64,000 nucleotides of DNA from an uncultured Chloroflexia bacterium (GTDB lineage Bacteria; Chloroflexota; Limnocylindria; Limnocylindrales; CSP1-4). The notes under the pieces are model-generated. The model saw nothing but the letters and a program-made list of their open reading frames with translations, did not search any database and was not told where the DNA came from. Positions 27,001 through 45,226 of the stretch are shown here, piece by piece (positions within the stretch are counted from its first letter, which is position 1; each line of letters opens with the position of its first letter). Position numbers and translations under genes: made by a program. The stretch is taken from NCBI GenBank assembly GCA_963763075.1, contig CAVXNF010000001.1:216862-280861 (forward strand). Direction: 5' to 3'.

Positions 27001-27657
27001 TCAGCCCTGGGTCAGGACGAACCGTACCGATAGTACTCCCGGTCCAGCTCGTAGCTGTCGGGGCCCGAAGGTCCCCGTCGCCATCTGGGCGATGAACCCG
27101 ACGACGGCGATCCCCAGCCAGACGACCAGCCAGATGAAGCTGTCGGCGATCTCGTTGCCGATGGCGAACCAGGTGATGTTGTCGGTCGGGATCGCGCCGG
27201 TCAGGATGAACCAGCCGCCGACGACCAACGCCGCCCCGCCGATCGCGGTGAGCGCGATGACGAGGTACTTGGGCACGTTGAGCATCAGCGTCGCGATCGC
27301 GAACACCGCGCCGAGCGCGATGCCCAGGATGAACGCGATGAGCCCGTCGTCGCTGCCGATCAGGCCCCACAGGCTGGAGCCGATGATGAACCCGACCGTG
27401 CCCGCGAGGACGGCGATCGCCGCGTAGTAGTAGAGATAGGCGAAGATGGCGAACACGAGCGCGAGGACGATGCCGATCGCCCAGCTCGTGAGTGTCGCGA
27501 ACGTCCCATCCCCGATGAGCGCCCGCACCCCCTCGGTGCCGAGGTTGAAGCCCACGAAAAAGCCCCAGAACGGCAGCAGGATCAGGAAGAACCTCCACCC
27601 TCCGAAGGCGAACAACGCCCCGAGAACCACTGCCAGGATCGCGATGACCAGTTGCAT
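27001..27657 (-). CDS. DUF4203-like multi-pass membrane protein
   Basis: 'GALFAFGGWRFFLILLPFWGFFVGF', 'TAIGGA', 'WLGIAVVGFIAQ'. Confidence 0.75.
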   Translation of the reverse strand: MQLVIAILAVVLGALFAFGGWRFFLILLPFWGFFVGFNLGTEGVRALIGDGTFATLTSWAIGIVLALVFAIFAYLYYYAAIAVLAGTVGFIIGSSLWGLIGSDDGLIAFILGIALGAVFAIATLMLNVPKYLVIALTAIGGAALVVGGWFILTGAIPTDNITWFAIGNEIADSFIWLVVWLGIAVVGFIAQMATGTFGPRQLRAGPGVLSVRFVLTQG

Positions 27658-27733
27658 CCAGACTCCCTCCGTCGACCGGATGTTCTGTTCCGGTCTCTGC
27701 GCGGATGATACGAACGAGCGCAAGCGCCGGTCA

Positions 27734-27750
27734 TCCCCCGCCTTGGATGA
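27734..27750. promoter_or_regulatory. TCACCY-N5-GGRTGA-type site (tccccc-gcctt-ggatga)
   Basis: One mismatch to consensus; lies in the divergent promoter 27657/27784. Confidence 0.55.
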
Positions 27751-27783
27751 TCGCGCGGGACGTCCTGCCCGCACAATGCGGGC

Positions 27784-28953
27784 ATGCAGATGACCGACGG
27801 ACCGTCCGGCACCCCGCCGCCCACCGCCCGGCTGGGCGCGGGACCGCTGACGCCGCTCCTCGCGATCGTGCTGGTGATGGTCGCGGCGCTCGCGCTGCGC
27901 GAGATCGCCTCGCTCGTCGTGCCCGGTCCTGTTCGGCCTGTTCCTCGCCCTCGTCGCGTGGCCGCTGGTCGGGCGGCTCGAGGCCCGCGGGAGCCGCCAC
28001 GCCGTCGCGCTGACCGCGACGCTCCTCGTCGTGCTCGCGATCGTCCTCGTCGTGGCGCTCGTCGTCGCGTTCTCGATCGCGGAGCTCGTGCTCCAGGTGC
28101 CCCGCTACGAGGACCGGTTCCGGGCCCTCGTCACCGCCGCCCAGGAGCTGCTCGCGGGCTTCGGCGTCACGGTCGACCCCGAGGCGATCGCGTCGGTCGT
28201 GTCGGTGAGCCAGGTGCTGTCCTGGCTGCGGCCCGTCGCGTCGGCCGCGTCCGCGACCGGGCTGGGGTTGCTCGTGCTCACGCTCACGATGGTCTACGCG
28301 CTCGCCGGGGGCAGCTCGCTTCAGGCACGCGCCGAGGCGACGTTCGGGGCCGAGGGCAAGCTCCTGTCGGGGATCGAGCAGTTCGGCGCCGACCTGCGGA
28401 AGTACCTGCTCGTCCGGGCGCAGCTGGGCGTGTTCGCGGCTGTGCTGTCGGCGATCCTCCTGTGGGTCCTCAACGTGCCGTTCCCGCTGCTGTGGGCGTT
28501 CCTCGTGTTCGCGGCGTCGTTCATCCCCAACATCGGCACGTTCATCGCGGTCGTCCCGCCGGCGATCCTCGCGCTGCTCGGGGGCGGGGTCGCTGCCGGC
28601 GGTCGCCGTCGTCGTCGGCTACACGCTGATCAACTTCGCCCAGGACCACTTCCTGCAGCCGGTCGTCATGGGCTCCGAGCTCAACCTCACCCCCCTCGTC
28701 GTGTTCCTGTCGGTGCTCGCGTGGGCGTGGATCCTCGGCCCGGCCGGGGCGCTGCTCGCGGTGCCGCTCACGGTGGGCCTCGTCGCGATCCTCGAGGCGT
28801 ACCCGTCGGGGGCGCGGATCGCGGCCCTGCTGCGCAACCGGCTCGACGAGCGGCCGGGGCTGCCGGACCTGGTGCCGGAGACGGGCGGGATCGTGGTCGC
28901 GACGTCGACGACGGACGTCGCGCGGCCGGCCGACGACGGCGACGGACGCCTGA
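27784..28953 (+). CDS. AI-2E (PerM/TqsA) family transporter, frameshifted
   Basis: 'SFIPNIG..IAVVPP', 'LQPVVMG..LNLTPLVVFLSVLAWAWILGPAGALLAVPLT'. Confidence 0.85.
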
Positions 28954-28958
28954 GCGCG

Positions 28959-29294
28959 TTACTCCAGCGCCGCCTCGACGTCGTACCCGGCCGCGAGCGC
29001 GATCCGGGGAGCCGCGGCGATGACCCTCGCCGAGCCGACCGTGCCGGCGACGGCGTACACGGCGGCCAGCAGGTCCTCGAGCCGGGCGCCCGTCCGCTGG
29101 GCCGCGCCGACCGCGGAACGGAACGAGGACGGCGGGGCATCGAGGGCGATCAGGGCGGCCACCTGGAGGAGCGCCTCGGTGCGCGCGTCGAGGTGCGGCG
29201 CGGTCCGGTCCGGGTCGCGTCGGTCGACGATCTCCGCGAGCAGCAGGGGATCGCCGATCGTCAGTCGTCGGAAGGCTTCATCCGCGCGCGGCAT
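28959..29294 (-). CDS. Carboxymuconolactone decarboxylase (AhpD-like) family protein
   Basis: 'LDARTEALLQVAALIALDAP..SF', 'VGSARVIAAAP.IALAAGYD'. Confidence 0.7.
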   Translation of the reverse strand: MPRADEAFRRLTIGDPLLLAEIVDRRDPDRTAPHLDARTEALLQVAALIALDAPPSSFRSAVGAAQRTGARLEDLLAAVYAVAGTVGSARVIAAAPRIALAAGYDVEAALE

Positions 29295-29376
29295 GCCTCA
29301 CCAGAACCCCTCGTCGTCTCCGGCGGTTGTACGTCCGTCGTAGGCCGCAGTGAATGGCCCACGGCGGTGGCGCGCA

Positions 29377-29411
29377 TCACCCGCCGCGGGTGAATCACCT
29401 TGACCGGGTGA
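29377..29411. promoter_or_regulatory. Tandem pair of TCACCY-N5-GGGTGA palindromes
   Basis: tcaccc-gccgc-gggtga (29377-93) and tcacct-tgacc-gggtga (29395-411), between divergent genes. Confidence 0.75.
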
Positions 29412-29471
29412 TGCTGGGGGGTACCGTTGAGCAGTTGCATGAACGTCTGGACATCTAGAGGAGGAACGACC

Positions 29472-29924
29472 GTGACTTTGGGGCCGCTGGAATACACCGT
29501 CATCGGCTTCGCTGGCAACAACTTCGATGGCAGCATCGCGGACGAGATCGGGCGGGTCGTCGAGAACGGCACCATCCGCATCGTGGACGCGGTCGCGATC
29601 ATCAAGGACGCCGAGGGCGAAGTTGCCATCGTCGAGATCGATGCCAAGAGCGATGAGCGGTTCGCGTCGATCGCGCCGCTGCTCGAGGGCCGCATGGGGC
29701 TGTTCACGCCCGAGGACCTCGCGACGCTCGCCGAGGGCATCCCCGCCGAGACCTCGGCGCTCGTGCTGCTGTTCGAGCATCGCTGGGCCGTGCGCGTCAA
29801 GGAGGCGATCCAGAACGCGGGCGGCGTGCTGATCGCCCGGTCGGTGATCCCGCCGGAGATCCTCGAGGAGGCCTCCGCCGAGCTCGAGGCCTATGCTGCG
29901 CAGCTGGAGGCCGGTGTCGCCTGA
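29472..29924 (+). CDS. DUF6325/DUF1269-like acidic protein
   Basis: GAGGA RBS; 'GPLEYTVIGF.GN.FDG.IA', 'GTIRIVD', 'LLFEHRWA'. Confidence 0.75.
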   Translation: MTLGPLEYTVIGFAGNNFDGSIADEIGRVVENGTIRIVDAVAIIKDAEGEVAIVEIDAKSDERFASIAPLLEGRMGLFTPEDLATLAEGIPAETSALVLLFEHRWAVRVKEAIQNAGGVLIARSVIPPEILEEASAELEAYAAQLEAGVA

Positions 29925-29979
29925 CGCGCTTCGCTGAACGTCGCCACCAGTCACCATTGCGATCGAGGAGGACCTATCG

Positions 29980-30300
29980 ATGATGATGCGTCGTCGCGGC
30001 CGGCCGCTCATGCGTGCCGCCGCCACCACAGCGGTCGTCGCCGGCACCGCCGGAGCCGTCCGTCACCACCAGGAAACCAAGTACGCCAACCAGGCTGCCC
30101 AGCAGCAGGCGGAGTACGAGCAGGCGTACCAGCAGGGCGCCGCCGAGGCTCAGCCTGCACCCGCTCCCGCCGCCGCGCCGGCAGCCGCGCCGCCGGCGGG
30201 CATCGACATGGCGCAGCTCAAGCAGCTGGGGGATCTCCACGCCGCGGGCGTCCTCACCGACGAGGAGTTCGCCGCGGCGAAGGCGAAGCTGCTGGGCTGA
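29980..30300 (+). CDS. SHOCT domain protein
   Basis: 'AATTAVVAGTAGAV', Ala/Pro linker, 'LKQLGDLHAAGVLTDEEFAAAKAKLL'. Confidence 0.88.
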   Translation: MMMRRRGRPLMRAAATTAVVAGTAGAVRHHQETKYANQAAQQQAEYEQAYQQGAAEAQPAPAPAAAPAAAPPAGIDMAQLKQLGDLHAAGVLTDEEFAAAKAKLLG

Positions 30301-30370
30301 CCCGGGTCGCGCCCACCGTCGCGCACGCGACGAGCGACCGACAGATCCGCACTGAGGGAGATCGACCTAC

Positions 30371-30776
30371 ATGAAGAACCCGCCCATTCTCATCTCCGTT
30401 CTCGGCTTCTTCGGGGCCATGGCCGGCTTCGCCTGGCTGTTCTTCGGCCTCCGGCTGCTCGGCTTCGACTGGTTCGGCGCGCTGGGTGACGTCCCGGCGT
30501 TCGAGTCGGCGGGCCTCTGGGGCTGGCTGGCGATCGCCGGTGGCATCGCCTGGCTGCTCGCCTCGTTCGGCCTGTGGTCCCTCCAGCCCTGGGCATGGAC
30601 GTTCGCCATGATCGTCGCGGGCTTCGCGATCTTCGAGGCCGTCCTGTACATGATCCAGTACGCGGGCAGCGGCATCGGCCTCGGCATGATGATCCTCCCC
30701 GGATCATCATCATCTACCTGATGACCCGCGAGGTGAAGTCGCGTTCGGCATCGGGGAGCCGTCCTCGGTGGCCTGA
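30371..30776 (+). CDS. Four-TM membrane protein (end approximate)
   Basis: 'GLWSLQPWAW', 'IIIYLMTREVK' after an indel. Confidence 0.7.
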
Positions 30777-31074
30777 CCCACGGCCGGCTCGGCCGGCCAC
30801 CTGCACGACATCGAGGCGCATCCGCGAGGGTGCGCCTCGATCGATTCCGGGGGCCTGCGGCGACCCGGACGCGTCGCCTGGCCGGGTCGCCCGGCGTCCA
30901 CTGAGCGCTCCGGCGCCACCTGGATCGCCGGGCGTTCCAGCCGTCGCAGGTGCATCCGGGCCGCGCGGCGTCCCGCGTGGAGCGGATCCCGGCAGCTGGA
31001 ACGCCGGCGGATCCACGGCCCGGAGCCAGCGGTCGAGAGCACTGGGCGCGAGAACCCGGCCCCGGGCACGATCG

Positions 31075-33239
31075 TCAGTCGTCGCCGCCGAACACGAGGC
31101 GGAACAGGACGAAGAAGCTCACCAGCAGCGTGACCCCGAACACGATGATCGCGATGTAGGCGAGCCCGGTGAACGCGGCGAGCTGCGGCTGGAGCAGGAT
31201 CGTCATCGCGATCGCCGTGCCGATGAGCTGGCCCACGACGATGATCCCGCCGGTCGCCTGGCGGCCCATCCCCTCGATCCGCCCGATCGACTCGTTGAGG
31301 TCCGACGTGTCGAGCTCGACGGTCAGCCCGCCCTTGTTCACCACGTCCAGCCACTTGAACGCCGCCGCTTCCAGCGTCGGCGCGCGGCGGGCGAGCTCCT
31401 TGGACAGGCGGACGCCCGTCGACTGCAGCTGGCGGGTCAGCTTCTCCGGCTCGAGCTGCTCGAGGAACGCCGCCTTGGCCTCGGTGATCGCCGCCGACGC
31501 GACGTCGACGTCGGGCGACAGGTTGCGGGCGGTCTCCTCCGCCTGGACGGTCGCCTTGATCGCGAGCGTCAGGCTGCTGTCGAGCCGCAGCCCGTTGTCG
31601 AACACGGCGCTCATGAAGCCGGTCAGGGCGCCGCCCATCGACTGCACCCCGCCGTAGACGAGGTAGCGCCGCGCGAGGCGGTCGATGTCGGCGCGGAACT
31701 GCGCCTCGTCGAAGCCCTTCATCGGCGTGCCCAGCGCCAGGAGCCCGTCGGCGATGGCCGGGATGTCGATCTCCTTGACGGCGTAGATCAGGCCCAGGAG
31801 GTCGACCCGCTGCGTGCTGTTCAGCTGGCCCGACGAGCCCCATGTCGAGGAACACGAGCCGCTTCGTCGCCGGGTCGGCCATCAGGTTGCCCGGGTGCGG
31901 GTCGCCGTGGAAGAACCCGTCGATGAGCACCTGCTTGATGACCGCCTGGATGAACGTGCCCGCCAGCGCCGTCGTGTCGAAGCCCGCCGCCCGCAGCTCG
32001 TCCGCGTGCGAGATCTTGATGCCCGCGATGAAGTCCATGGTCAGGACCCGCACGCCCGACAGCTGGTCGTGGATCCGGGGCACGGTGATCTCGGGGAAGC
32101 GGGCCATGTTGTCCGCGAGCCGCTTCGCGTGGTACGCCTCGTTCGTGTAGTCGAGCTCGCGCAGCACGCCCGCCGGCGAACTCGTTGACGAGCGCGCGGG
32201 CGCTGATCTTCCGGGCGATCGCGAGCCGCCGCTCGGCGATCGAGGCGAGCTCCGTGATGACGCCGAGGTCCGCCTTGGTCTTGGCGACGATCTGCGGCCG
32301 CTGGACCTTGACCGCGACGACCGTCCCGTCGTGGAGCGTCGCCTTGTGGACCTGGGCCGTCGACGCGGCCGCGAACGGCACCGGGTCGATCGTCGCGAAC
32401 AGCTCCTCCGGGTCACGGCCGAGCTCGCCGCGGATGACGGCGCGCGCCTCCTCCCACGGGAACGGCGCCGCGTCGCTCTGGAGCTTCGACAGCTCCGTGA
32501 TGAGGTCGGCCGGCAGGACGTCGCCGCGGCTGGCGATCATCTGGCCGATCTTCACGTATGTCGGGCCGAGCTGCTGGAGCAGCAGCCGGAAGCGGACGGC
32601 GCCCGACGTCCCGACGAGCTGGTCCTCCTCGTGGAGGATCCGCTGCCCGAACCAGATCCGGAAGCGGCCGACCGGCGTCTTCTGGAGCACCGAGTCGAGG
32701 ACGGCCGCGTAGATCGCGTCGTAGACCTGCTGCAGCCGCAGGTTCTCGATGATCAGGTTGCGGCGCGGGGTGGGCAGCGACTCGAGGAACCGCCAGATCG
32801 CGGCCGTCGGGCCGTCCGGGGTGATCCGCGGCCGGTTCAGCCCGAGCACCGCGTCGAGGACCGAGGTCAGGATCGTGTACAGGGCGGCCGTCACGACGAA
32901 CCACAGCAGGGCGGGCTGGGCGATGACGGCGATGTCGGGCGCGAGCAGCGAGGCGATCCACAGCACGAGCGTGTTGGCCGCGATGAGGAACAGGCCCATC
33001 GTCGACAGGATCAGCCGGCCGGTGAACGCCACGATGACCGGTCGCACGAAGCGCTCGGTCAGCACGAGGAACATCGCCGCGACGAGGAACGGGACGATCC
33101 CGGCGCCACGGAGCTGGAGGATCGGCGCGCTGTCGGGCCCGAACGGGAACGGCTGCGAGACCGTCGGGATGCTCAGCAGCAGGATGATGACCAGGAGGAC
33201 GAGCGCATCCGCCAGGGCCTCGACGATGAACCGGCGCAT
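31075..33239 (-). CDS. ABC1/AarF/UbiB atypical kinase with N-terminal 4-TM holin-like (DUF360-type) domain
   Basis: 'LGPTYVKIGQ', 'PFAAASTAQVH', 'VAVKVQRP', 'ELDY', 'GFFHGDPHPGN', 'LDMG'; N-terminal 'FVRPVI..ILSTMGLFLIAANTLVL'. Two indels. Confidence 0.85.
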
Positions 33240-33300
33240 CCCGTCCTCCTTTCCTGGTGGTGTCGCCCGCAGGCGACGTGATCAGGCTAGCCGGGATTCG

Positions 33301-34140
33301 TCAGCTGCCGGACGGCGTGCTGCCGCCGGCGTAGAACTCGAGCGCGGTCTTCGTCTTGGTCTGCTGCTCGCCGTCGAGGTTGATCCCGCGCTCCACGAGG
33401 TAGGCGCGCGTCTCGCCTGCGATCTTGAGCGCGTCCTCGGGCAGGCACTTCGTCGACAGCTCGAGGATCCGCGAGCCGTCCGGGTAGAACCACACCTCCG
33501 CGACAAGCGACTGGATCGAGCGCTTCGTCACGCCGAGCTGGACGTCGAAGCGGGACTTGAGCAGGAACGTCGGCCCGAGCGGCTCGAGATCGTCGAGCGC
33601 GATGCCCTCGGGCGCGTGCGCCCGGTAGAACTCGCGCTGCGACTTCGAGAACAGGCGGCGCAGCGGGGCGTGCGCCGGTCGCCGCCTCGCGGACCTCGTC
33701 GCCGGTCGTGCGGCCCTTGAGCGACGCCGAGCACACGAAGCCGCCGGGCAGGACGTCGACCTCGACGTTGAAGTCGGCCTGGCGCCGGAGGGAGGCGGGC
33801 AGGTCCGCGGGCTCGACGGGCCGGAGCTTGATCACCGTGTCGCCACGCCCGCCCTGCGTGCGTCGAGCGCGCACGACGAGCCCGGCCTTGTTGAGGGTCA
33901 GGTCCGGGGTGTCGAAGAAGTAGACCTGCCGGGGCTGCGCCTCGACGGGGTCGAGCGGGAGGCCCTGGATCGTCGCCCGATGCTGGTCGACCGGGCACGG
34001 TCGCCTTGAGCTCGACGCTGTCCGCACCGCGGATGAGCTTGAGCACCTCGCCGACCTGCGCGTCGGACAGGCGGCTGGTGCCGCCGGTGGTGGCCGGGCG
34101 CCGCGGTTGCCGCCGCGGTCTTCGCCTTCGTGGGACTCAT
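33301..34140 (-). CDS. CYTH/triphosphate-tunnel-like protein, frameshifted
   Basis: 'SVELKATV', 'VYFFDTPDL.L..GLVVRAR', 'VIKLRP', 'ILELSTK', 'QQTKT..ALEF'. Confidence 0.7.
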
Positions 34141-35652
34141 CTCGATACCTCCGATGCGGTCTGGGTGACGCCGAACCGCGTTGCCAGGACGCCGTGCCGG
34201 AGGCCACGGTCGCTGACCGTCAGCCGGTCGGCGCCGAGCGCGTCCATCACCGATGCCACGACGCACGCCCCGGCGAGGATCACGTCCGCGCGCTTGGGCT
34301 GGAGCCCCGGGATCGCGCGCCGCTCGGCGGCGGGGAGGGTCCGGTACAGCTCGAGCTGGCGTCCGAGCTCCGAGCGCTCGAGGACGCTGCCCTGGATGAC
34401 GTCCGGGTCGTACGTCGTCATGCCGTGGGACACGGCGGCGATGTTCGTGACCGCGCCGCCCATCCCGACCAGCCGGTCCACCGGGTCGCGGCCGTCGAGC
34501 CGCGACAGGTCGGCGCGGATGGCGGCCAGCGCCTCCGCCAGCACCTCGGTCGAGACGGGGCCGTCGAGGCCGAACCGCTCCGTGAACCGCACGGCGCCGA
34601 CGTCGACGCTGAACCGCTCCGAGACCTCGGTCCCCGTGCCGAACGTGAGCTGGGTGCTGCCGCCGCCCGTGTCGAACACCGCCAGCGACGCGTCCGGCAG
34701 CCCGAGCCCGGCGAGGACCGCGAGGTACGCGAGGCGTGCCTCGTCCTCCCCCGAGATGACCTCGATCCGCACGCCGGTCGCCTCGGCGACGGCCTGGACG
34801 ACGTCGTCGCCGTTGGTCGCGATCCGCAGCCCGGCCGTGCCGACCGCCACGATCGCGACGGCGTGCAGCTCGTCCGCCTCGCGGACCATGCCGGCGATCG
34901 CGTCACGCGTGCGAGCGAGCGCGTCCGGCGTCACCACCCCGCCCGCCTCCAGTCCCTCGCCCAGGCGGGTGAGCTCGGCGCGGTCGACCAGCGTCCGGAA
35001 CCCGCCGTCGTCCCGTTCCGCCACGTGGAACTTGATCGAGTTCGTGCCGGCGTCGATGACCGCGTAGCGAGGCGGCACGCCGTCGAGCAGCGCGGCGAGG
35101 CCCGGCGGGTACGCGGTGTTGCGGTAGTCGGCGAGGCCCAGCGTCCGGACGGCCGCGGTCACCAGCGCCGGATCCTCCGTCTCGACCGCGATCGTCCGCG
35201 TCGTCCGGCCGTCGGCGACGACGTCGGTGAGCTCCGAGGTGCAGCCGTCGATCACGTAGCGCACGCGATGCTTGTGGACCGCCACGGCGCGCACGCCGGT
35301 GCCCGGCCCGGTCAGCTCGGCCTCAAGCTGCTCCGCCGTGTAGGTCTCGCGCGCGAGGGCGGGCGCCGGGAGCCGCAGCGCCTCCCACACGGCGCGAATC
35401 GCCTCTCCGTCGATCGGGAAGGCAACCTTGAGGACGGGCCGCCATTGCTGGAGCCCGTTCGCGTCCACGGCGAGCAGCGCCTTCACGTCCATCAGCCCGT
35501 CGCGGATCTTGACGGTGGTGCCGCCGGCCGACAGGAGGTAGCGCTCGTCGCTGTCGGCCGTGCCGCGTCGGCGTGCGTCCTTCGAACGCCGGGGCCCCGG
35601 CCTCCGCGCCCGCCCCGAACGTGCGCCATTCCCAGCGTGCGCCGCTTGCCAT
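34137..35652 (-). CDS. Ppx/GppA phosphatase with N-terminal CYTH-like domain
   Basis: 'AVIDAGTNSIK', 'TRLGEG', 'ISGEDEARL', 'DTGGGSTQ', 'RADVILAG', 'GLRHG'; N-terminal 'RWEWRTF..SDERYL..VKIRDG..VHKHR'. Confidence 0.85.
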
Positions 35653-35704
35653 CCACTCCTCCGCGATCCTGCTCGCATGGTCACCGGGCCGGGCACGCTG
35701 TGCG

Positions 35705-35721
35705 TCGCCCGCTTCGGGTGA
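35705..35721. promoter_or_regulatory. TCACCY-N5-GGRTGA-type site (tcgccc-gcttc-gggtga)
   Basis: One mismatch; in the divergent region between ppx and the LuxR regulator. Confidence 0.65.
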
Positions 35722-35936
35722 GACACGCACGGGCGCGGACTGCAACGACCTTGCAATCACGGGCTTCAGGGTGGCAGGTGGCATGTATTGTGGAGCTTCG
35801 ACCACGCACAACGCGCACCTCTGGAGCTCACCCTGCGTCCCGATCCACGGGCAGATCCGAACGCGGCACACCCGTCGGCGGGCGCTGGCACGCCGACCGG
35901 GGCATGCGCACGCCACGCAACCGGGGGTCCATCGGC

Positions 35937-38255
35937 ATGACGATCGCACGGGGGAGCCGCCTCGAGGCGTTGCCGATCATCGAGGCCAAGGTCCACCCGG
36001 TCACGGCCGCGCGCGGCTCGGTCGACCGGAGCCGGATCGTCGACCGGCTGCTCGATCCGGACGCACCGATGCTCGTGACGCTGGCGGCGCCTGCCGGCTA
36101 TGGCAAGACGACCGTGCTCGCGCAGTGGGTCGAGCGCGAGGCCCGGCCCGTCGCGTGGCTGACCGTCGACGCCTCCGACAACGACCCCACGGTGTTCGTG
36201 GCGTACCTCGCCTCCGCGCTCTCGCGCATCGGCGACATCGACGGGTCGCTCCTCGGCGGCACGACGATGGCCCGCAGCCGGATCCTCTCGTTCGCGGTTC
36301 CCCGCCTGCTCGCGGACATCCACCGCTGGCCGCAGCCGGCGGTGCTGGTCATCGATGACGCGCACCGGCTGACCGACGCCACGTCCCTGGACGCGCTGGC
36401 GACGTTCGCGAGCCACCTGCCGCCGGGCTTCCACCTCGCCGTCGCGGGCCGGGTCGCGCCGCGCCTGCCGGTCGCCCGTCTCCGGGCCGAGCGCAAGGTG
36501 CTCGAGATCGACGCCGCGACCCTCGCGCTCGACGCGCGGGAGACCGCGGCCCTCACCGCCGCGGCGGGCTGGCCGCTGTCGACCGACGACGCGTCGGCGC
36601 TCGTGGCCCGCACCGAGGGCTGGGCGGCCGGCATCTACCTCGCGACGCTCGCCCACGAACGGGGCGAGCCGGATGCGGACTGGACGACGGCCGTGTCCGG
36701 CGTCGACGAGCCGATCGCCGACTACCTGCGGTCCGAGGTCGGGCACCGGATCGACGACGACGACATGACCATCCTGACCCGGTCCGCCATCCTCGAGCTG
36801 CTCGAGCCGCGCGCGGTCGAGGCCGTCACGGGACGTGCCGACGCCGCCGACCGCCTCGAGGCGCTGGCGGCGCAGAACCTGTTCATCCAGGCGGTGGGGC
36901 GCGATGGGCGCTCGTTCCGCTATCACAAGCTGCTCCGGGACTTCCTCCTCGCCGAGCTCGAGCGACGCGAGCCGGGCATGACCGTCACGCTCCACCGCTC
37001 GGCGGCGACGTGGGCCGCGGGCGCGGGCGCGATCGAGCTGGCGATCCACCACGACCTCGCCGCGGGCGACCGGGCGGACGCGGCGCAGCTCGTCGCGACG
37101 CACGGGGTCGCGGCGTTCCAGGCCGGCGACCTCGTGACGCTGGAGCGCTGGCTCGGCGCGTTCGACACCGAGGACTTCGAGGCCCAGCCGCAGCTCGCGC
37201 TCCTCGGGACGTGGGTGTTCGGGATCACCGGCCGCGGGGATGACGCGATCCGGCTGGCCGAGGTCGCCGACCGCGTCTCGGTCGACGACATGGATCCCGC
37301 CACGGCGTGGTCGTTCGAGTCGCGACGCGCGATGGCCCGCGCCGTGCTGTGCCGGCGGGGGCCGCGCGCGATGCTCGCCGACGCGGAGCTGGCGGTGGCC
37401 CGGGAGCCCGCGAGCGGCCGCTGGCTGACCCACGCCCTGTGGCTGCTGGGCTCCGCCCACTACCTGCTGGGCGACCTCGACGCCGCCGAGGCGGCGCTCC
37501 ACGCGTCGACGCGCGAGGCCATGGCGATCGACAGCCCGAACCTCGCGCCGCTCTCCCTGCTCGCGAGCATCCGGATCCGCCGCCAGGACTGGGCCGGCGC
37601 CGAGCAGCTCGTGCGCGAGGCGTCCGGCCGGCTGGAGCAGTTCGGCTACAGCTACCTCGTCATGAGCCTCGGCGTGTACGCGCTGGAGGCCCGCATCGCC
37701 GCCCACCGGGGCGAGGTGCACGCCGCCCGCGAGGCGCTCGTCAAGGCGCAGCTCGTCCGGCCGCTCGCCACCCGCGCCTCGCCGACGTACTCCGTCGGGA
37801 GCCTGGTCGAGCTCGCCCGCGCCTACCTCGCGATGTCCGACCCCGCCGGCGCGCAGATCGTCGTGCGCGAGGCCGAGGAGATCGTCCGCCGCACACCGGC
37901 GCTGGGCATCCTCACCGACGAGCTGATCGAGGTCCGCCGCTACCTCAGCGGCGCGGCGACGGCGCTCGTCGGGTCGTCCGCGCTCACCTCGGCGGAGCTG
38001 CGGATCCTGCCGTTCCTGCCGACGTACCTCTCGTTCCCCGAGATCGCGGACCGGCTGAGCATCTCGCGCAACACCGTGAAGACGCACGCGATGTCGATCT
38101 ACGGGAAGCTGTGGGCCTCGTCCCGCGGCGAGGCCGTCGAGCGGGCCGTGGAGCTCGGCCTCCTCGAGCCGTATCCCGGGCCTCGAGTCCCTGCGCAGCA
38201 CGACCCCGCGCAGCCCCGCGTCCTGACGACCCGATCCACGCAGGAGCCTCGATGA
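35937..38255 (+). CDS. MalT-type (STAND NTPase-TPR-LuxR HTH) transcriptional regulator
   Basis: Walker A 'APAGYGKTT', Walker B 'LVIDDAH', 'TEGWAAG', C-terminal 'LTSAELRIL..EIADRLSISRNTVKTH..IYGKL'. Confidence 0.93.
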   Translation: MTIARGSRLEALPIIEAKVHPVTAARGSVDRSRIVDRLLDPDAPMLVTLAAPAGYGKTTVLAQWVEREARPVAWLTVDASDNDPTVFVAYLASALSRIGDIDGSLLGGTTMARSRILSFAVPRLLADIHRWPQPAVLVIDDAHRLTDATSLDALATFASHLPPGFHLAVAGRVAPRLPVARLRAERKVLEIDAATLALDARETAALTAAAGWPLSTDDASALVARTEGWAAGIYLATLAHERGEPDADWTTAVSGVDEPIADYLRSEVGHRIDDDDMTILTRSAILELLEPRAVEAVTGRADAADRLEALAAQNLFIQAVGRDGRSFRYHKLLRDFLLAELERREPGMTVTLHRSAATWAAGAGAIELAIHHDLAAGDRADAAQLVATHGVAAFQAGDLVTLERWLGAFDTEDFEAQPQLALLGTWVFGITGRGDDAIRLAEVADRVSVDDMDPATAWSFESRRAMARAVLCRRGPRAMLADAELAVAREPASGRWLTHALWLLGSAHYLLGDLDAAEAALHASTREAMAIDSPNLAPLSLLASIRIRRQDWAGAEQLVREASGRLEQFGYSYLVMSLGVYALEARIAAHRGEVHAAREALVKAQLVRPLATRASPTYSVGSLVELARAYLAMSDPAGAQIVVREAEEIVRRTPALGILTDELIEVRRYLSGAATALVGSSALTSAELRILPFLPTYLSFPEIADRLSISRNTVKTHAMSIYGKLWASSRGEAVERAVELGLLEPYPGPRVPAQHDPAQPRVLTTRSTQEPR

Positions 38256-39104
38256 CCGCCGCAGCCGCCGCGCCGACTGTCCGCAGCCACGGCAACGCCT
38301 ACGAGATCTTCATCCTCGTCCTGACGGTGATGTCGCTGATCGTGATGGCGCTGGTGATCCTGCCGCTCAGCCCGGCGACGCACGAGACGCTGCTGTGGTT
38401 CGACAACGCGATCTGCTTCGTGTTCCTCGGCCGACTTCCTGTACAACATCACCGGCTCGTCGCCCCGCAGCGAGTACTTCATCCGCCGCCGGGGCTGGCT
38501 GGACCTGCTGGGCTCGATCCCGACCCTCGGCATTCTTCCGGTTCACGGCGCTGTTCCGCCTCGCCCGGCTGTCGCGGCTGGCCCGGATCATGCGATTGCT
38601 CAGCGGGCAGCACAAGCGCGAGCTGATCGACGACATCGTCAAGAACCGCGGCCAGTACGCGCTGTTCGTGTCGCTGCTGCTCGACGTTCATCGTCCTGTC
38701 CACGGGGACGGTCCTCGTGCTCCAGTTCGAGTCCCGCTCGCCCGGACGCGAACATCGTCACCGGCGGCGACGCGCTGTGGTGGGCGTTCGTCACGCTGAC
38801 CACCGTCGGCTACGGCGACTACTACCCGGTGACCACGCTGGGCCGCATCACCGGCGTCGCCGTGATGGCGGCCGGCATCGGGCTCATCGGCGCCCTCGCC
38901 AGCATCCTGGCCAGCGTCCTCGTGCCCTCGCCCGACGAGCAGGCCGCGGCCGCGACGGCCGCCGGCAGCGACGACAAGGCGGAGCTCGACCAGCGCCTCA
39001 CGGCGATCCAGGGCGAGCTCGAGGCGATCCGCGACGAGCTGCGCGCGTTCCGCGGCGCGGCAGGCGGCCCGGCCGACGCCGAGCCGCCGCCCGACAGCCG
39101 CTAG
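38252..39104 (+). CDS. Voltage-gated-type K+ channel, frameshifted
   Basis: S4-like 'FRLARLSRLARIMR', 'ALWWAFVTLTTVGYGD'. Confidence 0.88.
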
Positions 39105-41878
39105 GCGGCGGCCGGGGCCGCCGGGGCGGCGTCGGCGGGAACGGCCGCGAGGGGCGGGATCTCCGCGGTCTGGATCTTGAGCAGCTTCTTCACCTCGGCG
39201 ACGACGATCACCACGAGCGACACGCCGAACGCGATCAGCCACTGGTCGGTGGTCAGGTTCACCGTGTCGAGGATCCGGTTGAGCAGCCCCAGCTCGGACA
39301 TGACGAGCGTCGCGACGAGCGCGAGGCCGGCCGTCTTGAGCAGCACCGCGTTGCCGAGGACCTTGGCCGAGAACATCGACGCGTCCTCGTCCACGGTCTC
39401 GAGCGCGAACCAGATGTTCGTGAACGCGAACGTCGTGAGGCCCATCGTCCGGGCGACGGTCTCGCCGAACACCGGCGTCGCCCAGGCGATGACCGCCAGC
39501 GTCAGCGCCGAGATGACGACGCCGATGAACACGAGGTAGACGAGCAGCTTGGTGCCGAGGATCGGGACGGTCGGCGATCGCGGCGCGTCCTTCATCAGCC
39601 CCTCGCGCGCCTTGCCGTAGCCGAGGCCGATGGCGAGGAACACCTGGACGGTGAAGTTCACCCACAGCGTCTGGAGCGGCAGGAACGGCATGCCCTGCGC
39701 GATGAACAGGATCGCCGCGCCGAGGAACGTGCCGATGAACCCGAACAGGCCCGCCATCTGGAACCGGATGTAGCGCACGAGGTTGTCGTACAGCGCCCGG
39801 CCGAGCTCGACCGCCTTGACGATGGTCGCGAAGTTGTCGTCGGTGAGGATCATCACCGCGGCCTCCTTCGAGACCTCGGTGCCCGTGATGCCCATCGCGA
39901 CGCCGATGTCGGCCTTCTTGAGCGCCGGGGCGTCGTTCACGCCGTCGCCGGTCATGGCGACGATGTGGCCCTTCGACTTGAGGATGTCGACGAGGTGGAC
40001 CTTGTCCTCCGGCGCGACGCGCGCGATGACGCCGATGCCGTCGATCTCGCGCCGCAGCGTGTCGTCGTCCATGGCGGCGAACTCGGCGCCCGTGATCGCC
40101 CGCCCGGTGATGCCCAGCTGGCGGGCGATCGCCTCGGCGGTCACGGCATGGTCGCCGGTGATCATCCGGACCTGGATGCCGGCCGCGTGGGCGATCGCGA
40201 TCGCGTCGCGCGCCTCGGGGCGCGGCGGGTCGACGATGCCGACGAGCGCCAGCAGCGTGAGGTCCTGGACGAGCGGCAGCTGGTCGGCCGCGGTGCGGTC
40301 GAACGTCGCCGGGTCGAAGTCGCGGTAGCCCGTCGCCATCACCCGCAGGCCCTGCGACCCGAGCCGGTCGTTCTCGGCCAGGTACGGCTCGCGGACATCG
40401 GCGATCGGCGCGGTGCCGCCGTCGGGGCGGATCGCGTTGGCGGCCCGGGCGAGGAGCTGGTCCGGGGCGCCCTTGACGTACGCCCGGATGACCGGCTTGC
40501 CGGCCTCGTCCTGCATCTCGTGGAACGTGGCCATGAACTTGTACGCGGCGTCGAACGGGACCTCGGCGATCCGCGGGAACTTCTCGCGGGTGAGCACCGG
40601 GTCGACGCCGCCCTTGGCGGCGAGCACGACGAGCGCGCCCTCGGTCGGGTCGCCGACCAGCTGCCCGTCCTTGGCGACGGCGTCGGCGCACAGCGCCATC
40701 GGCAGCAGGTAGCGCTCCAGCGGCACCTCGCCGCGGCCCGCCTCGCCCTGGATGTTGCCGACCGTCGAGTACCCCTCGCCGCTGATCGAGAACCGCTGGC
40801 CGGCGATCGCCATCTGCACGGCGGTCATCTGGTTGAGCGTGAGGGTGCCCGTCTTGTCGGAGTTGATCGCCGAGGTCGAGCCGAGCGTCTCGACCGAGCG
40901 CAGCCGCTTCACGATCGCGCCCGCCTTGGCCAGCGTCGAGGTGCCGTTGGCGAGGATCGTCGTCACCACGGCCGGCAGGCCGGTGGGGATCGCCGAGACC
41001 GAGAACGCGACGGCGGTGAGGAACAGCAGCTGGAACGGCTGGTCGCGGTACAGCCCGAGGCCGATCGAGATGACCAGCGCGACCCCGGCGATGACGAGGA
41101 TCTGGTTGGTCAGCGTGTTCAGCTGCTTGGTGAGCGGCGTGACCTCGGCCGTCGTCTGCTGGAGCATGTTGGAGATGTGGCCGACCTCGGTCCCCATGCC
41201 GGTCGAGGTGACGACGAACGTCGCCGCGCCGCGGGTGACCTGGTTGTTCATGAACGCCATGTCCACCCGGTCGCCGAGGGCCGCGTCGGCCTTGACCGCG
41301 TCGATGCTCTTGGGGACGGGCGCGCTCTCGCCGGTCAGCGCCGATTCGTCGATCTCGAGGGTCGCGGCGCGGATGATCCGGCCGTCGGCCGGGACGAGGT
41401 CACCGGCCTCGATGTTGACGATGTCGCCCGGGACCAGCTCCTCCATCGGGATCTGGCGGACCTCGCCGCCGCGCCGGACCTTGGCCTGGACGATCATCAT
41501 CTTCTGGAGCGCGGCGACGCTCGCCTCGGCCTTGCCCTCCTGGTTGAGGCCCAGGAACGCGTTGAGCAGGGTGAGGAACACGAGGACCACGCCGGTCGCG
41601 AACTGGCCGGGCAGGAACATGCTCACGATGCCCGCCACCAGGAGCACGATCTGCATCGGGTCCCTGTACTGGCGGAGGAACGCGCGCAGGCGCGGCTCCT
41701 TCTCCGCCTCGGCGAACTTGTTGGAGCCGAACTTCGCGCGGCGGGCCTCGACCTCGGCGTCGGACAGGCCGTTCGCCGCGTCCACGCCCTGGGCGGCGAG
41801 CGCCTCCTCCACCGTCATCCCGTGCCATGCGCGCGCGGCGTCCGTCGAGCCCGCTGCGGATGCCGCCTGTTCGGTCAT
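39101..41878 (-). CDS. P-type ATPase (P2-like scaffold, non-canonical membrane site)
   Basis: 'TGES', 'DKTGTLT', 'KGAP', 'MITGDH', 'GDGVNDAPALK'; TM4 reads IPTGL rather than IPEGL. Confidence 0.95.
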   Translation of the reverse strand: MTEQAASAAGSTDAARAWHGMTVEEALAAQGVDAANGLSDAEVEARRAKFGSNKFAEAEKEPRLRAFLRQYRDPMQIVLLVAGIVSMFLPGQFATGVVLVFLTLLNAFLGLNQEGKAEASVAALQKMMIVQAKVRRGGEVRQIPMEELVPGDIVNIEAGDLVPADGRIIRAATLEIDESALTGESAPVPKSIDAVKADAALGDRVDMAFMNNQVTRGAATFVVTSTGMGTEVGHISNMLQQTTAEVTPLTKQLNTLTNQILVIAGVALVISIGLGLYRDQPFQLLFLTAVAFSVSAIPTGLPAVVTTILANGTSTLAKAGAIVKRLRSVETLGSTSAINSDKTGTLTLNQMTAVQMAIAGQRFSISGEGYSTVGNIQGEAGRGEVPLERYLLPMALCADAVAKDGQLVGDPTEGALVVLAAKGGVDPVLTREKFPRIAEVPFDAAYKFMATFHEMQDEAGKPVIRAYVKGAPDQLLARAANAIRPDGGTAPIADVREPYLAENDRLGSQGLRVMATGYRDFDPATFDRTAADQLPLVQDLTLLALVGIVDPPRPEARDAIAIAHAAGIQVRMITGDHAVTAEAIARQLGITGRAITGAEFAAMDDDTLRREIDGIGVIARVAPEDKVHLVDILKSKGHIVAMTGDGVNDAPALKKADIGVAMGITGTEVSKEAAVMILTDDNFATIVKAVELGRALYDNLVRYIRFQMAGLFGFIGTFLGAAILFIAQGMPFLPLQTLWVNFTVQVFLAIGLGYGKAREGLMKDAPRSPTVPILGTKLLVYLVFIGVVISALTLAVIAWATPVFGETVARTMGLTTFAFTNIWFALETVDEDASMFSAKVLGNAVLLKTAGLALVATLVMSELGLLNRILDTVNLTTDQWLIAFGVSLVVIVVAEVKKLLKIQTAEIPPLAAVPADAAPAAPAAA

Positions 41879-41924
41879 GCCTCACCTCCATCGCCCATCA
41901 AACGCAATGGATCGGGGACGGGCA

Positions 41925-41941
41925 TCACCCGACGGGGATGA
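41925..41941. promoter_or_regulatory. TCACCC-N5-GGATGA site
   Basis: tcaccc-gacgg-ggatga upstream of the P-type ATPase; shares 'ggatgatcgcgc' with the 27734 site. Confidence 0.7.
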
Positions 41942-42122
41942 TCGCGCATGCGGGCCGGTCCACGCGGAACGGTTGCGCTTGGATGAAGGTTCGTCCACCA
42001 ACGGCCGGCTCTAAGCAATCTCTCATCGACCCTCCGAAGGATCGGGTGACAGCACCCGCACGGCCGTCGTGCGGCACACCCCGACGACCCGATCCGCCCG
42101 CCCAGCGGGCACGGAGGACCGC

Positions 42123-43157
42123 ATGACCCTCGCCAGCGACGCACCGCAGCCGATCCATCCCGCGTCCGCGATCGACGCCCTCGACCCGCGCACCACCGCC
42201 GAGGCGGTCCTGTACGAGATCCGGCGCGTCATCGTCGGCCAGGACGAGATGCTCGAGCGGGTGCTCGTGGCGCTCCTCGCGGGCGGCCACCTCCTCCTCG
42301 AGGGCGTCCCCGGCCTCGCCAAGACGCTCACGATCCGGACCCTCGCCGACGCGCTCGACGCGTCCTTCCGCCGGATCCAGTTCACCCCCGACCTCGTCCC
42401 TGCCGACCTCGTCGGCACCCGCATGTACCGCCCCAACACGGCCACGTTCGAGACCGAGCTCGGCCCGGTGTTCTGCAACTTCCTCCTCGCCGACGAGATC
42501 AACCGCGCGCCGGCCAAGGTCCAGTCCGCGCTGCTCGAGGTGATGCAGGAGCGCCAGGTCACGATCGGCCGCGAGACGTTCGCCGTCCCGAAGCCGTTCC
42601 TCGTGATGGCCACCCAGAACCCGATCGAGTCCGAGGGCACGTACCCGCTGCCGGAGGCCCAGGTCGACCGGTTCATGATGAAGGTCGTCGTCGGCTACCC
42701 GACCGCCGCCGAGGAGCAGGTCGTCGTCGAGCGCTCGCTCCGCCCGGCCCAGCCCGTCCGCCGCGTCCTCGACGCCGCCCAGCTGGAGCTGCTGCAGGCC
42801 GCCGTCCCCGAGATCTACGTCGACCCGGTCCTCGTCGCCTACGCGGTCTCGATCGTGGCCGCGACCCGCGAGCCCGCGCTCGCCGGCCAGCCGGACCTCG
42901 CGAAGTACATCTCGTTCGGCGCCAGCCCGCGCGGCTCGATCAACCTCATCCACGCGGCCCGGGCGCTCGCCCTCCTGCGCGGCCGCCGGTACGTCATCCC
43001 CGCCGACATCTACGAGCTGGCCCCGGACGTCCTGCGCCACCGCATCGTCCCGTCCTTCACGGCCCTCGCCGAGGAGGTCACGGCCGACTCGATCCTCGCC
43101 CGCATCCTGCCGGCCGTGCCGGCGCCGCGCCAGATCACGGAGGAGCGGACGGCATGA
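42123..43157 (+). CDS. MoxR family AAA+ ATPase
   Basis: 'LEGVPGLAKT', 'RIQFTPDL', 'LADEINR', 'ATQNPIE.EGTYPLPEAQ.DRF', 'GASPR'. Confidence 0.95.
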   Translation: MTLASDAPQPIHPASAIDALDPRTTAEAVLYEIRRVIVGQDEMLERVLVALLAGGHLLLEGVPGLAKTLTIRTLADALDASFRRIQFTPDLVPADLVGTRMYRPNTATFETELGPVFCNFLLADEINRAPAKVQSALLEVMQERQVTIGRETFAVPKPFLVMATQNPIESEGTYPLPEAQVDRFMMKVVVGYPTAAEEQVVVERSLRPAQPVRRVLDAAQLELLQAAVPEIYVDPVLVAYAVSIVAATREPALAGQPDLAKYISFGASPRGSINLIHAARALALLRGRRYVIPADIYELAPDVLRHRIVPSFTALAEEVTADSILARILPAVPAPRQITEERTA

Positions 43158-44149
43158 CGCTCGCCACGCCGGCACGGGACGGCTCGCGGGGCCGCACCCG
43201 CACGCCGGCCCGGCCCGGCCCCGGCCCGACGCCCGAGGCGCTGCTCCGCGCGCTCGAGCTGTCGATCGCGCGCCAGATCCGCGGCCTCGTCGCCGGGGAC
43301 TACCGGGCGCGCGACCTCGGCGGCGGCACGGAGCTCGCCCAGGTCCGGCCGTACGAGCCGGGCGACGACGTCCGGCGGATCGACTGGAACGTCACCGCCC
43401 GGATGCAGGTCCCGCACGTCCGGATCCACGTCCCGGAGCGGGCGCTCACGACGTGGCTCGTGCTCGACTGCTCGCCGTCGATGCAGTTCGGCACCGCCGA
43501 CCGCCGCAAGGCCGACGTGGCCGAGGGCGTGTCGATCGCGATGGCCCATCTGTCCTCGCAGCGCGGCAACCGCCTCGGCGTCGTCACGTTCGGCGGCGCG
43601 GTGGATCGCACCGTCCCGCCGCGCACCGGCCGGGCGGCGCTCCTCGCGACGCTGCTCGACGCGGAGCTCGACGGCGCGGCCGAGGCGGCCGGCGACGGCT
43701 CGCGGTCCCGATCGCGCGACGTCCAGCCGCTCCCCGACGAGGCGCGCACGCCCGAGGCGGCGCTCCGCTTCGTCGCCCGCGGCACGCCGCCCGGCGGCCA
43801 GGTCGTCCTCGTGACCGACCTCCGCGGGCCGCTCGAGTGGCTGCCCCAGCTGGGGGCCGTCGCCCAGCGCCACGCGGTCCTCGTCGTCGAGGTCCGCGAC
43901 CCGCGCGAGGACGAGCTCCCCGACGTCGGCGACCTCACCCTCGTCGACGCCGAGACCGGCCGCGAGGTCCGTGTCGACACCGGCTCCTCGACCCTCCGCA
44001 CGAAGTTCGCCGAGGCCGCCGCCCGCGATCGCGCCCACGTGGCAAGCGAGCTGCGCCGCCTCCGCGTCCGTCACGTCGTCCTGTCCACGTCCGGCGGCTG
44101 GCTGCGCTCGTTCGCCGATCAGCTCCGCATCCAGGGATTGCTGCCATGA
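43154..44149 (+). CDS. DUF58 protein
   Basis: 'RPYEPGDDVRRIDWNVTAR', 'DCSPSM.FG', 'DPREDELP'. Confidence 0.92.
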   Translation: MTLATPARDGSRGRTRTPARPGPGPTPEALLRALELSIARQIRGLVAGDYRARDLGGGTELAQVRPYEPGDDVRRIDWNVTARMQVPHVRIHVPERALTTWLVLDCSPSMQFGTADRRKADVAEGVSIAMAHLSSQRGNRLGVVTFGGAVDRTVPPRTGRAALLATLLDAELDGAAEAAGDGSRSRSRDVQPLPDEARTPEAALRFVARGTPPGGQVVLVTDLRGPLEWLPQLGAVAQRHAVLVVEVRDPREDELPDVGDLTLVDAETGREVRVDTGSSTLRTKFAEAAARDRAHVASELRRLRVRHVVLSTSGGWLRSFADQLRIQGLLP

Positions 44150-45226
44150 CCTTCGCCGAGCCCCTCCTGCTGGCGGGCCTGCTCCTCGTCCCGCTCGCGC
44201 TGGGCGCCTACATCCTCGTCCAGCGCCGGCGCTCCCGGTACGTGGTCCGGTTCACCAACGTGGACCTGCTCACGAACCTCGTGCCGCGCACGCCCGGCCT
44301 GCGCCGGCACGTGCCGACCGCCCTGTACCTCGGCGCGATGACGTTCCTCGTCGTCGCCCTCGCCCGGCCGTCGATGACGCTCCAGGTCCCGCGCGAGGAG
44401 GCGACCGTGATGCTCACGATGGACGTCTCGCGCTCGATGACCGCCACCGACGTCGACCCGACCCGGCTCGCGGCCGCCAAGGCCGCCGCCACGGGCTTCG
44501 TCGACAGCCTGCCCGCCGCGTTCCGCATCGGGCTCGTCGCGTTCTCCACCGACGCCCGCCTCATCGTGCAGCCCACGACCGACCGCGGCCAGGTCCGCGA
44601 CGCGATCGACAGCCTCAACCCGGACGGCGGCACGGCCCTGGGCGACGCCATCGCGCTGTCGGTCGACGCCACCGCCGACGCCCGCAGCGTCACCGTCCGA
44701 GACCGACACCGGCGCCGCCGACCCGTCGGCCTCGCCGTCCGCCGCGCCCGAGGCGAGCCCCGACCCGAACGCCTCCGCGAGTCCCGACGCCTCGGCCGAT
44801 CCCGGCGCGGGCGACGGGACGCCCGTCACCGCCACGATCCTCCTGTCCGATGGCGCCAACTCGACCGGCCAGGCCGAGCCGCTCGACGCGGCCCAGGAGG
44901 CCGCGGACGCGGGGATGCCGATCTACACCATCGCGCTCGGCACGCCCGACGGCGTGGTCGAGGTCCAGGACCAGTTCGGCCAGACGCAGCAGCTCCAGGT
45001 CCCGCCGGACACGGAGACGCTGCAGCAGGTCGCCGAGATGACCGGCGGCCGGTACTTCGACGCCCCCACGGCGGAGGACCTCGCGGCCGTCTACGAGAGC
45101 CTCGGCTCCAAGGTCGGCTACACCGAGCAGGTCCAGGAGGTCACCCAGTGGTTCGCCGCGGGCGCCCTGCTGCTGGTGGTCCTCGGCGGCGGGCTCGCCG
45201 CCCTGTGGTTCAACCGCTTCCCCTGA
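44146..45226 (+). CDS. VWA domain membrane protein (BatA-like), one frameshift
   Basis: N-terminal TM, 'LARP', MIDAS 'DVSRSM', 'GTALGD', 'LLSDG', 'IYTIALG', 'TGG.YF', C-terminal TM. Confidence 0.9.

Follow-up and report, generated by a model that had tools for sequence, protein, structure and literature searches.

A palindrome in a membrane, ion and polyphosphate gene block of an uncultured Chloroflexota bacterium as a probable operator of a MalT-like LuxR activator

A single palindrome recurs in the intergenic regions of a gene block lying within the window considered here, that is, the whole stretch of 64,000 nucleotides (contig C1:216862-280861) taken from the genome of an uncultured soil bacterium of the Chloroflexota. 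This palindrome is probably, with a chance that can be put near three in four, the DNA site of a MalT-like activator, a STAND-LuxR protein of the group of large LuxR-family regulators that bind ATP (LAL), and most likely of the one encoded in the block itself (35937-38255). Its reading as the operator of a MalT-type co-regulator is supported by conservation of the sites in related genomes, by promoter geometry, by the regulator's homology to MalT and by a published precedent in Actinoplanes sp. SE50/110 (Droste et al., 2020; PMC7567727). The system is not a new one; it is a further example, in another phylum, of the kind of regulon published in 2020 for Actinoplanes, and with the phenomenon already described its value lies in annotation and comparison. 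For this uncultured lineage it provides a putative regulon: the operator is defined, the layout of the promoters is predicted, and the targets form a short list, most of them of unknown function (DUF6325, SHOCT, DUF1269, DUF4203, the CMD-like protein and CYTH-Ppx).

The original prediction had placed the pattern TCACCY-N5-GGRTGA, with at most one mismatch, at five positions of the block, and all of them were recovered by a pattern search of the window: 29377, 29395 and 41925 are exact, 27734 and 35705 carry one mismatch each, and all five are intergenic. The search returned nine strand matches in the window, compared with a mean of 1.07 in dinucleotide-preserving shuffles, nine being reached in 1 of 100 of these. 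The genome to which the window belongs (G000) comprises 3.79 Mb in 20 contigs and is rated 70.7% complete. Over all 20 contigs there are 31 positions with at most one mismatch, and the block holds five of them, including all three exact matches (3/3). Outside the block, 14 of the 26 one-mismatch positions fall inside called genes, as counted with a crude codon-usage caller of our own, and a -10-like hexamer stands at the right distance in 2 of the 26, compared with four of the five block sites. A symmetric weight matrix was also built on 12 sites (the five of the window plus seven that occupy orthologous gaps in relatives), and its top four matches in the genome are all in the block (27.8, 27.2, 22.3 and 21.1, the next best being 18.3). 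The consensus is ATCACCC-N5-GGGTGAT, with half-sites that vary as TCRYCC, and such variants are found side by side within one genome. A 12-mer common to the sites at 27734 and 41925, GGATGATCGCGC, had been put forward as well; it is present at both, is absent from the orthologous sites of the related genome G024, and has been set aside as a functional element, being probably a product of chance. Another candidate, TCACCTTGGCAAGGTGA, a look-alike conserved in five genomes, proved not to be a site; it belongs to a tRNA-Gly gene, of which it forms the anticodon arm. The near-perfect motif match at C8:50113 of G000 is such an arm, of tRNA-Gly(GCC), found also in four other genomes, and constitutes a trap for motif scans.

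The position of the palindrome relative to putative promoter elements is fixed. From the block and from loci of the same family, 42 unique sites with a score of at least 15 were collected, giving 84 flanks, and these were searched for a -10-like hexamer defined by at least three of six matches to TATAAT, a T at position 6 and an A at position 2 or 5. In 31 of the 84 flanks it begins 23 nt after the 17-mer and in another 10 it begins 24 nt after it (41/84 together), the remaining offsets having a mean of 1.8 and a maximum of 6 of 84 flanks. At least one side is furnished with the hexamer in 38 of the 42 sites, and in 27 of the 30 that had no part in the training of the matrix. Because the -10-like hexamer begins 23-24 nt after the motif, this spacing, taken as a proxy, would let the motif end at around -35, where the hexamer is mostly ATGCNN, a poor -35 element. 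Sites of this kind, directly upstream of a weak -35 and at a fixed distance of 22-23 nt from the -10, would leave the target promoters in need of a bound activator to recruit RNA polymerase, a dependence like that of MalT-dependent promoters. The reverse effect, repression by a bound regulator that covers the -35 region, would agree with the proximal half-site abutting the -35 position and with the fact that certain LAL regulators, such as SCO6993 (PMC9628970), act as repressors and bind at their own promoters. It is nonetheless quite improbable, given that a poor hexamer at the -35 position is typical of activator-dependent promoters and that both E. coli MalT and its Actinoplanes homologue are reported as activators at the same geometry (PMC7567727).

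At the individual block sites the -10-like elements also keep their place in relatives. The counterpart in G024 of the hexamer facing DUF4203 is TATGAT at an equal offset; those facing the CMD-like gene and the ATPase are TGCAAT and TTTCAT, both at offset 23; and the hexamer facing CYTH-Ppx corresponds at this same offset to GACGAT in G024 and to GAGGAT in G002. The site at 35705 lies 53 nt upstream of the true start of CYTH-Ppx at 35652, allowing for a frameshift in the assembly. Ahead of DUF6325, the base at 29426 is left out in the short-read contigs of runs X2 and X4, and if it is an assembly error the offset of TTGCAT becomes 23 nt.

Orthologues of the regulator with 52-62% identity are found in the genomes G024, G002 and G019, and each of them is accompanied by the site: G024 has it in all four orthologous gaps (4/4), G002 in the LuxR/Ppx gap and G019 in the DUF6325/CMD-like gap. 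The site at 35705 forms a conserved island, the surrounding gap having diverged in three genomes. In the tandem pair both half-site pairs and the 18-bp register have been kept between the window and G024; the second site (29395) is identical, and the spacer of the first has changed. The DUF4203/AI-2E gap is 87% identical throughout and is therefore hardly informative on the conservation of its site, whose orthologue in G024 (L031:13784) has a matrix score of 22.0. Between the ATPase and MoxR genes G024 has an extra gene, and the site remains on the ATPase side. The extra open reading frame (ORF) measures about 450 nt (region L032:2683-3490). In addition, the interval that separates the small membrane gene from the CYTH-like gene in the G024 locus (L031:16702-16996) has no match to the holin-ABC1 kinase, and therefore the content of the island varies within the genus.

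Beyond these close relatives, a homologue of the regulator at E of at most 1e-90 occurs in 60 of the 301 genomes drawn from the family. When 28 LuxR loci were taken with flanks of 1.5 kb, a site scoring at least 13 was found in 19; in 14 of the 28 a site of at least 15 lies upstream of LuxR, mostly some 600 nt away and ahead of the CMD-like gene. Six of the 28 loci were inspected closely, and four of them carry degenerate sites that precede the start of the CMD-like gene by 78-98 nt and have a -10-like element at the customary spacing. The surroundings of LuxR homologues in 10 further genomes (387 kb) contain 12 matches at a score of at least 14, about two being expected from the background rate of G000, and 11 of these 12 are in gaps adjoining DUF6325, CMD-like, P-type ATPase or LuxR genes. 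Two of the genomes, G294 and G126, have no match at this score in the regions around their LuxR homologues. Sites stand upstream of P-type ATPase homologues in G024, G132 and G191, and for the DUF6325 operon both synteny and the upstream site are kept in other genera. A cross-phylum check of named plasmids gave one weak match, in Chroococcidiopsis (33% identity).

The regulator itself is clearly homologous to MalT. Over residues 27-421 it can be aligned with E. coli MalT (PDB 8bob, E 9.5e-45), and the Walker A and B residues G54, G56, K57, D140 and D141 are invariant in 27 orthologues. At the C-terminus it carries a GerE helix-turn-helix (HTH; PF00196, 31.8 bits for a cut-off of 23.5), and a TPR-like, putative sensor region reaches 33.7 bits with PF17874, below the 45-bit cut-off. 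The NCBIfam MalT model NF003420 matches it over model positions 2-528 of 903 with an E-value of 4.5e-89, and the score of 299.6 bits is below the equivalog cut-off of 537 bits. No maltose-metabolism family was detected among the 43 block ORFs scanned. In the same 43 ORFs the GerE of LuxR is the sole DNA-binding Pfam domain found, which agrees with the statement that STAND-LuxR is the only regulator of the block.

The precedent comes from Actinoplanes sp. SE50/110, where a MalT-like LuxR regulator has been reported to activate a region of 51 genes, termed 'maltose-regulated large genomic region' and abbreviated MRLGR (Droste et al., 2020; PMC7567727). In that study MEME identified TCATCC-5nt-GGATGA at 17 transcription start sites, with 34.4 +/- 1.0 nt between the 3' end of the motif and the start site; 42 of the 51 genes went down on deletion of malT, and at least 39 went up on its overexpression (PMC7567727). 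With a -10 element at -12 to -7, this element would begin some 22 nt after the Actinoplanes motif, which is the spacing found in the family of the block. According to supplementary Tables S3 and S4, the region includes one gene for a SHOCT protein, three for DUF1269 and one for an AI-2E transporter, and the paper further reports a neighbouring cation ATPase gene that is up on maltose and the presence of ppk2 in relatives of the organism (PMC7567727). In the text of the same supplement the terms 'CYTH' and 'P-type' have 0 occurrences each (DUF6325 was not searched there), and the 'exopolyphosphatase' genes and the one 'carboxymuconolactone decarboxylase' gene lie outside the region (PMC7567727). 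The Actinoplanes paper was the sole relevant match of a literature search on the MRLGR; similar searches found no paper on DUF6325 and none on DUF1269, SHOCT and LuxR together.

Several observations weigh against assigning the palindrome to the regulator of the block. The site at 27734, with its matrix score of 16.0, is at background level, 11 sites of at least 16 being present genome-wide. The weight matrix and the -10 rule are both our own, and the genomes compared are kin. Nine of the 28 LuxR loci have no site scoring at least 13 within 1.5 kb. On the LuxR side of the 35705 site no -10-like element was found at the fixed distance in the window, G024 or G002, so that the geometry gives no sign of autoregulation of LuxR in this genome. 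The main text of the Actinoplanes study reports no direct binding assay, and the abbreviation 'EMSA' (electrophoretic mobility shift assay) appears in it 0 times (PMC7567727). Moreover, G000 possesses a second MalT-like LAL gene (C1:394905-397285), with 55% identity in the HTH and the TVKTH..IY.KL helix in common, and the genome G006 keeps a strong site (score 21.5, same geometry) with a best LuxR relative that is just 32% identical, so that the motif is not tied to the orthologue of the block regulator. These two findings, together with the two MalT-like genes described within the Actinoplanes region (PMC7567727), would suit an arrangement in which the palindromes are MalT-type operators served by another MalT-like paralogue, or by several redundantly, the block LuxR perhaps not being the main binder. 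Such an arrangement seems unlikely, as a LuxR homologue of the regulator group adjoins the sites in the window, in G024, G002 and G019 and in eight of the 10 further genomes, and DUF6325 is also not found in four of five same-genus genomes that have no orthologue of the regulator. As for the second LAL gene, it is apparently frameshifted and lies about 3 kb from a DUF1269 gene, and the sites near it are weak (11.6 and 9.1). The 21.5 site of G006 is followed by the DUF6325-SHOCT operon, whose first gene encodes a DUF1269-sulfatase fusion (L108:10197-13220).

A very different explanation would be that the palindromes are RNA hairpins (leaders or terminators), members of a repeat family, or products of chance. 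G-U pairs could preserve the pairing of half-site variants such as TCGCCC/GGGTGA, and the tandem pair folds with a z of -2.1. Against this, single sites show no more folding than shuffled sequences (z between -0.3 and -1.2), the sites have no Rfam match, and it is the sequence itself that has been conserved, beyond pairing. The -10-like element, moreover, lies downstream of the motif, and therefore the motif is not transcribed from these promoters; and the sole conserved look-alike elsewhere is the tRNA-Gly anticodon arm mentioned above. This explanation can be held as very improbable indeed.

With the palindrome taken as the operator of a MalT-like activator, we infer binding by the block regulator, activation rather than repression, and a signal to which it responds. 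By analogy with MalT, a ligand together with ATP would lead to oligomerisation of the regulator, and the oligomer would then switch on DUF4203, the CMD-like gene, the DUF6325-SHOCT-membrane protein operon, CYTH-Ppx with its downstream genes, and the type II P-type ATPase; DUF1269 and AI-2E genes elsewhere in the genome would be likely targets too. Compared with the original prediction, which proposed a MalT-type operator of co-regulated membrane, ion and polyphosphate genes, the core stands, and the list of cargo turned out to be both too wide and too narrow. The genes named above for the block are all faced by sites and can be retained. MoxR-DUF58-VWA, listed among the cargo, should be dropped or marked as doubtful: in the window, the flank of the 41925 site that looks toward MoxR contains no -10-like element at the fixed distance, and in G024 the extra gene intervenes. 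The same applies to LuxR and the K+ channel gene, there being no -10-like element on the LuxR side and the channel gene merely following LuxR. The AI-2E gene of the block is doubtful, since the CACAAT on its side of the 27734 site is at offset 22 in the window and at 20 in G024, that is, at a variable spacing. On the other hand, what the list lacked is revealed by the composite sites (a matrix score of at least 14 plus a -10 element) elsewhere in G000, where the genes behind them number two to three for DUF1269 and one to two for AI-2E. One such site is found upstream of a double AI-2E gene (C11:96963), and DUF1269 genes follow the sites at C6:7128 and C6:252506; a further DUF1269 match, the third, is located about 590 nt downstream of the composite site C6:315629, the genome having five DUF1269 matches in total, and another AI-2E gene has a site scoring 13.5 upstream (C9:19450). 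A relationship of DUF6325 to DUF1269 was also considered and found no support (BLASTP E-values of 20 and 0.56).

The gene upstream of the regulator in many relatives deserves separate mention. The CMD-like protein is encoded directly upstream of the regulator gene, with a gap of about 160-190 nt, in 20 of the 28 family loci (L040-L064), and between G000 and G024 it is 98% identical, the regulator being 62% identical. Its structural model has a pLDDT of 89.8 and matches small CMD-family structures weakly by E-value (2af7, E 0.016, probability 1.00), and its nearest Atlas clusters are CMD-family clusters. In E. coli, MalT has MalK, MalY and Aes as signal-input partners. It is conceivable, as a speculation with the odds well against it, that an old ion, membrane and polyphosphate stress programme is common to Chloroflexota and Actinomycetota and is run by MalT-like activators unrelated to maltose, the cysteine-free CMD-fold protein being their dedicated signal-input partner in this lineage.

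The features of the block are collected in Table 1, the gene map being based on Pfam and NCBIfam. Several of its genes are broken in the assembly. Relative to G024, single-base insertions are present at 27921-27925, 28592-28593, 31829, 33665, 33991-33993, 34096 and 35560, and they disrupt the genes for AI-2E, the ABC1 kinase, the CYTH-like protein and CYTH-Ppx. At 27921, 28593, 31829, 33991 and 34096 the additional base is missing from short-read contigs of soil, and because of these omissions the breaks are most likely assembly errors and not pseudogenes; such frameshifts may also explain the low completeness figure of the genome. The channel gene (~38290-39104), too, is distributed over three frames. 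Downstream of the regulator gene, and in its orientation, stands a small ion-channel-like gene not only in the window but also in the G002 locus (L033:1400-1681) and in G142 (L050:629-856). Finally, about 110 nt of sequence ahead of MoxR (about 41976-42090) have hardly changed between the window and G024, in contrast to the remainder of the gap, which has diverged; the extra gene of G024 separates this stretch from the operator. A search of this stretch gave no Rfam match; a promoter or leader belonging to the MoxR operon itself is a possible reading.

Table 1. Predicted operator sites, -10-like elements and genes of the block (positions in the window).
Feature	Position	Strand	Remarks
Operator site (predicted)	27734..27750		between DUF4203 (-) and AI-2E (+); 1 mismatch; weakest of five, score 16.0
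-10-like TATCAT	27705..27710	-	starts 24 nt after 27734 site; faces DUF4203
Operator site 1 of tandem pair (predicted)	29377..29393		exact; score 27.2; faces CMD-like gene
-10-like TTCACT	29349..29354	-	23 nt after site 1; faces CMD-like gene; fails strict -10 rule
Operator site 2 of tandem pair (predicted)	29395..29411		exact; score 27.8; faces DUF6325 operon
-10-like TTGCAT	29435..29440	+	24 nt after site 2; faces DUF6325
Operator site (predicted)	35705..35721		between CYTH-Ppx (-) and LuxR (+); 1 mismatch; score 21.1
-10-like GACCAT	35677..35682	-	23 nt after 35705 site; faces CYTH-Ppx
Operator site (predicted)	41925..41941		upstream of P-type ATPase gene; exact; score 22.3
-10-like TTTGAT	41897..41902	-	23 nt after 41925 site; faces ATPase
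DUF4203 / TM7S3_TM198-like membrane protein	27001-27657	-	Pfam score below cut-off; likely target by promoter geometry
AI-2E family transporter	27784-~29023	+	frameshifted in assembly; possible target only
CMD-like (CMD-fold) protein	28959-29294	-	111 aa, cysteine-free; likely target
DUF6325	29478-29924	+	likely target operon 29478..30721
SHOCT protein	29980-30300	+	same likely target operon as DUF6325
Small membrane protein	30371-30721	+	weak DUF7144 match; likely target operon of DUF6325
Holin-ABC1 kinase	30710-33239	-	likely target operon 30710..35652
CYTH-like protein	33287-34207	-	likely target operon 30710..35652
CYTH-Ppx	34137-35652	-	likely target operon 30710..35652
STAND-LuxR regulator, MalT-like	35937-38255	+	772 aa; Walker A and B, TPR-like region, GerE HTH
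Ion-channel gene	~38290-39104	+	read by eye from ORF translations; no Pfam match
Type II cation P-type ATPase	39101-41878	-	925 aa; likely target
MoxR-DUF58-VWA	from 42123	+	Pfam/NCBIfam

The regulator and its sites can be compared with several known systems. With E. coli MalT they share a homologous STAND NTPase module and GerE HTH, a proximal box placed (here by prediction) beside the -35 region, and a box core, GGA(T/G)GA as quoted by Droste et al. (2020; PMC7567727), that matches the GGRTGA half-site. The boxes of MalT, however, are described as repeats of an asymmetric box, whereas the sites of the block are inverted repeats; the block, moreover, is devoid of maltose genes and its regulator scores below the equivalog cut-off. 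Another example is the Streptomyces LAL protein SCO6993, reported as a large ATP-binding member of the LuxR family that binds short palindromes, including some at its own promoter; it differs in that it represses regulators of antibiotic pathways and that no consensus could be derived for it, whereas the block has one clear consensus at a fixed promoter position (PMC9628970). The closest parallel is the Actinoplanes region (PMC7567727). It belongs to another phylum, the block being found in Limnocylindrales-like metagenome-assembled genomes of the Chloroflexota; its half-site is TCATCC, in contrast to the TCACCC preferred here; and the island of the block is much smaller, without amino-acid or glucosidase genes, and has as its core cargo the CMD-like gene, DUF6325, CYTH-Ppx and the P-type ATPase. 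Both systems nevertheless have the 6-5-6 layout of the palindrome, its place, predicted in the block, beside the -35 and a MalT-like LuxR gene inside the island, and both carry mostly uncharacterised membrane cargo with a partial overlap that includes SHOCT, AI-2E and DUF1269; the cation ATPase next door and the ppk2 of the Actinoplanes relatives have their counterparts in the ATPase and the Ppx/CYTH genes of the block (PMC7567727). The presence of the operator, the geometry and part of the cargo in Actinoplanes as well suggests that MalT-like regulators run a widespread non-sugar stress module, and the conserved core of this module narrows where to look for its trigger and its role.

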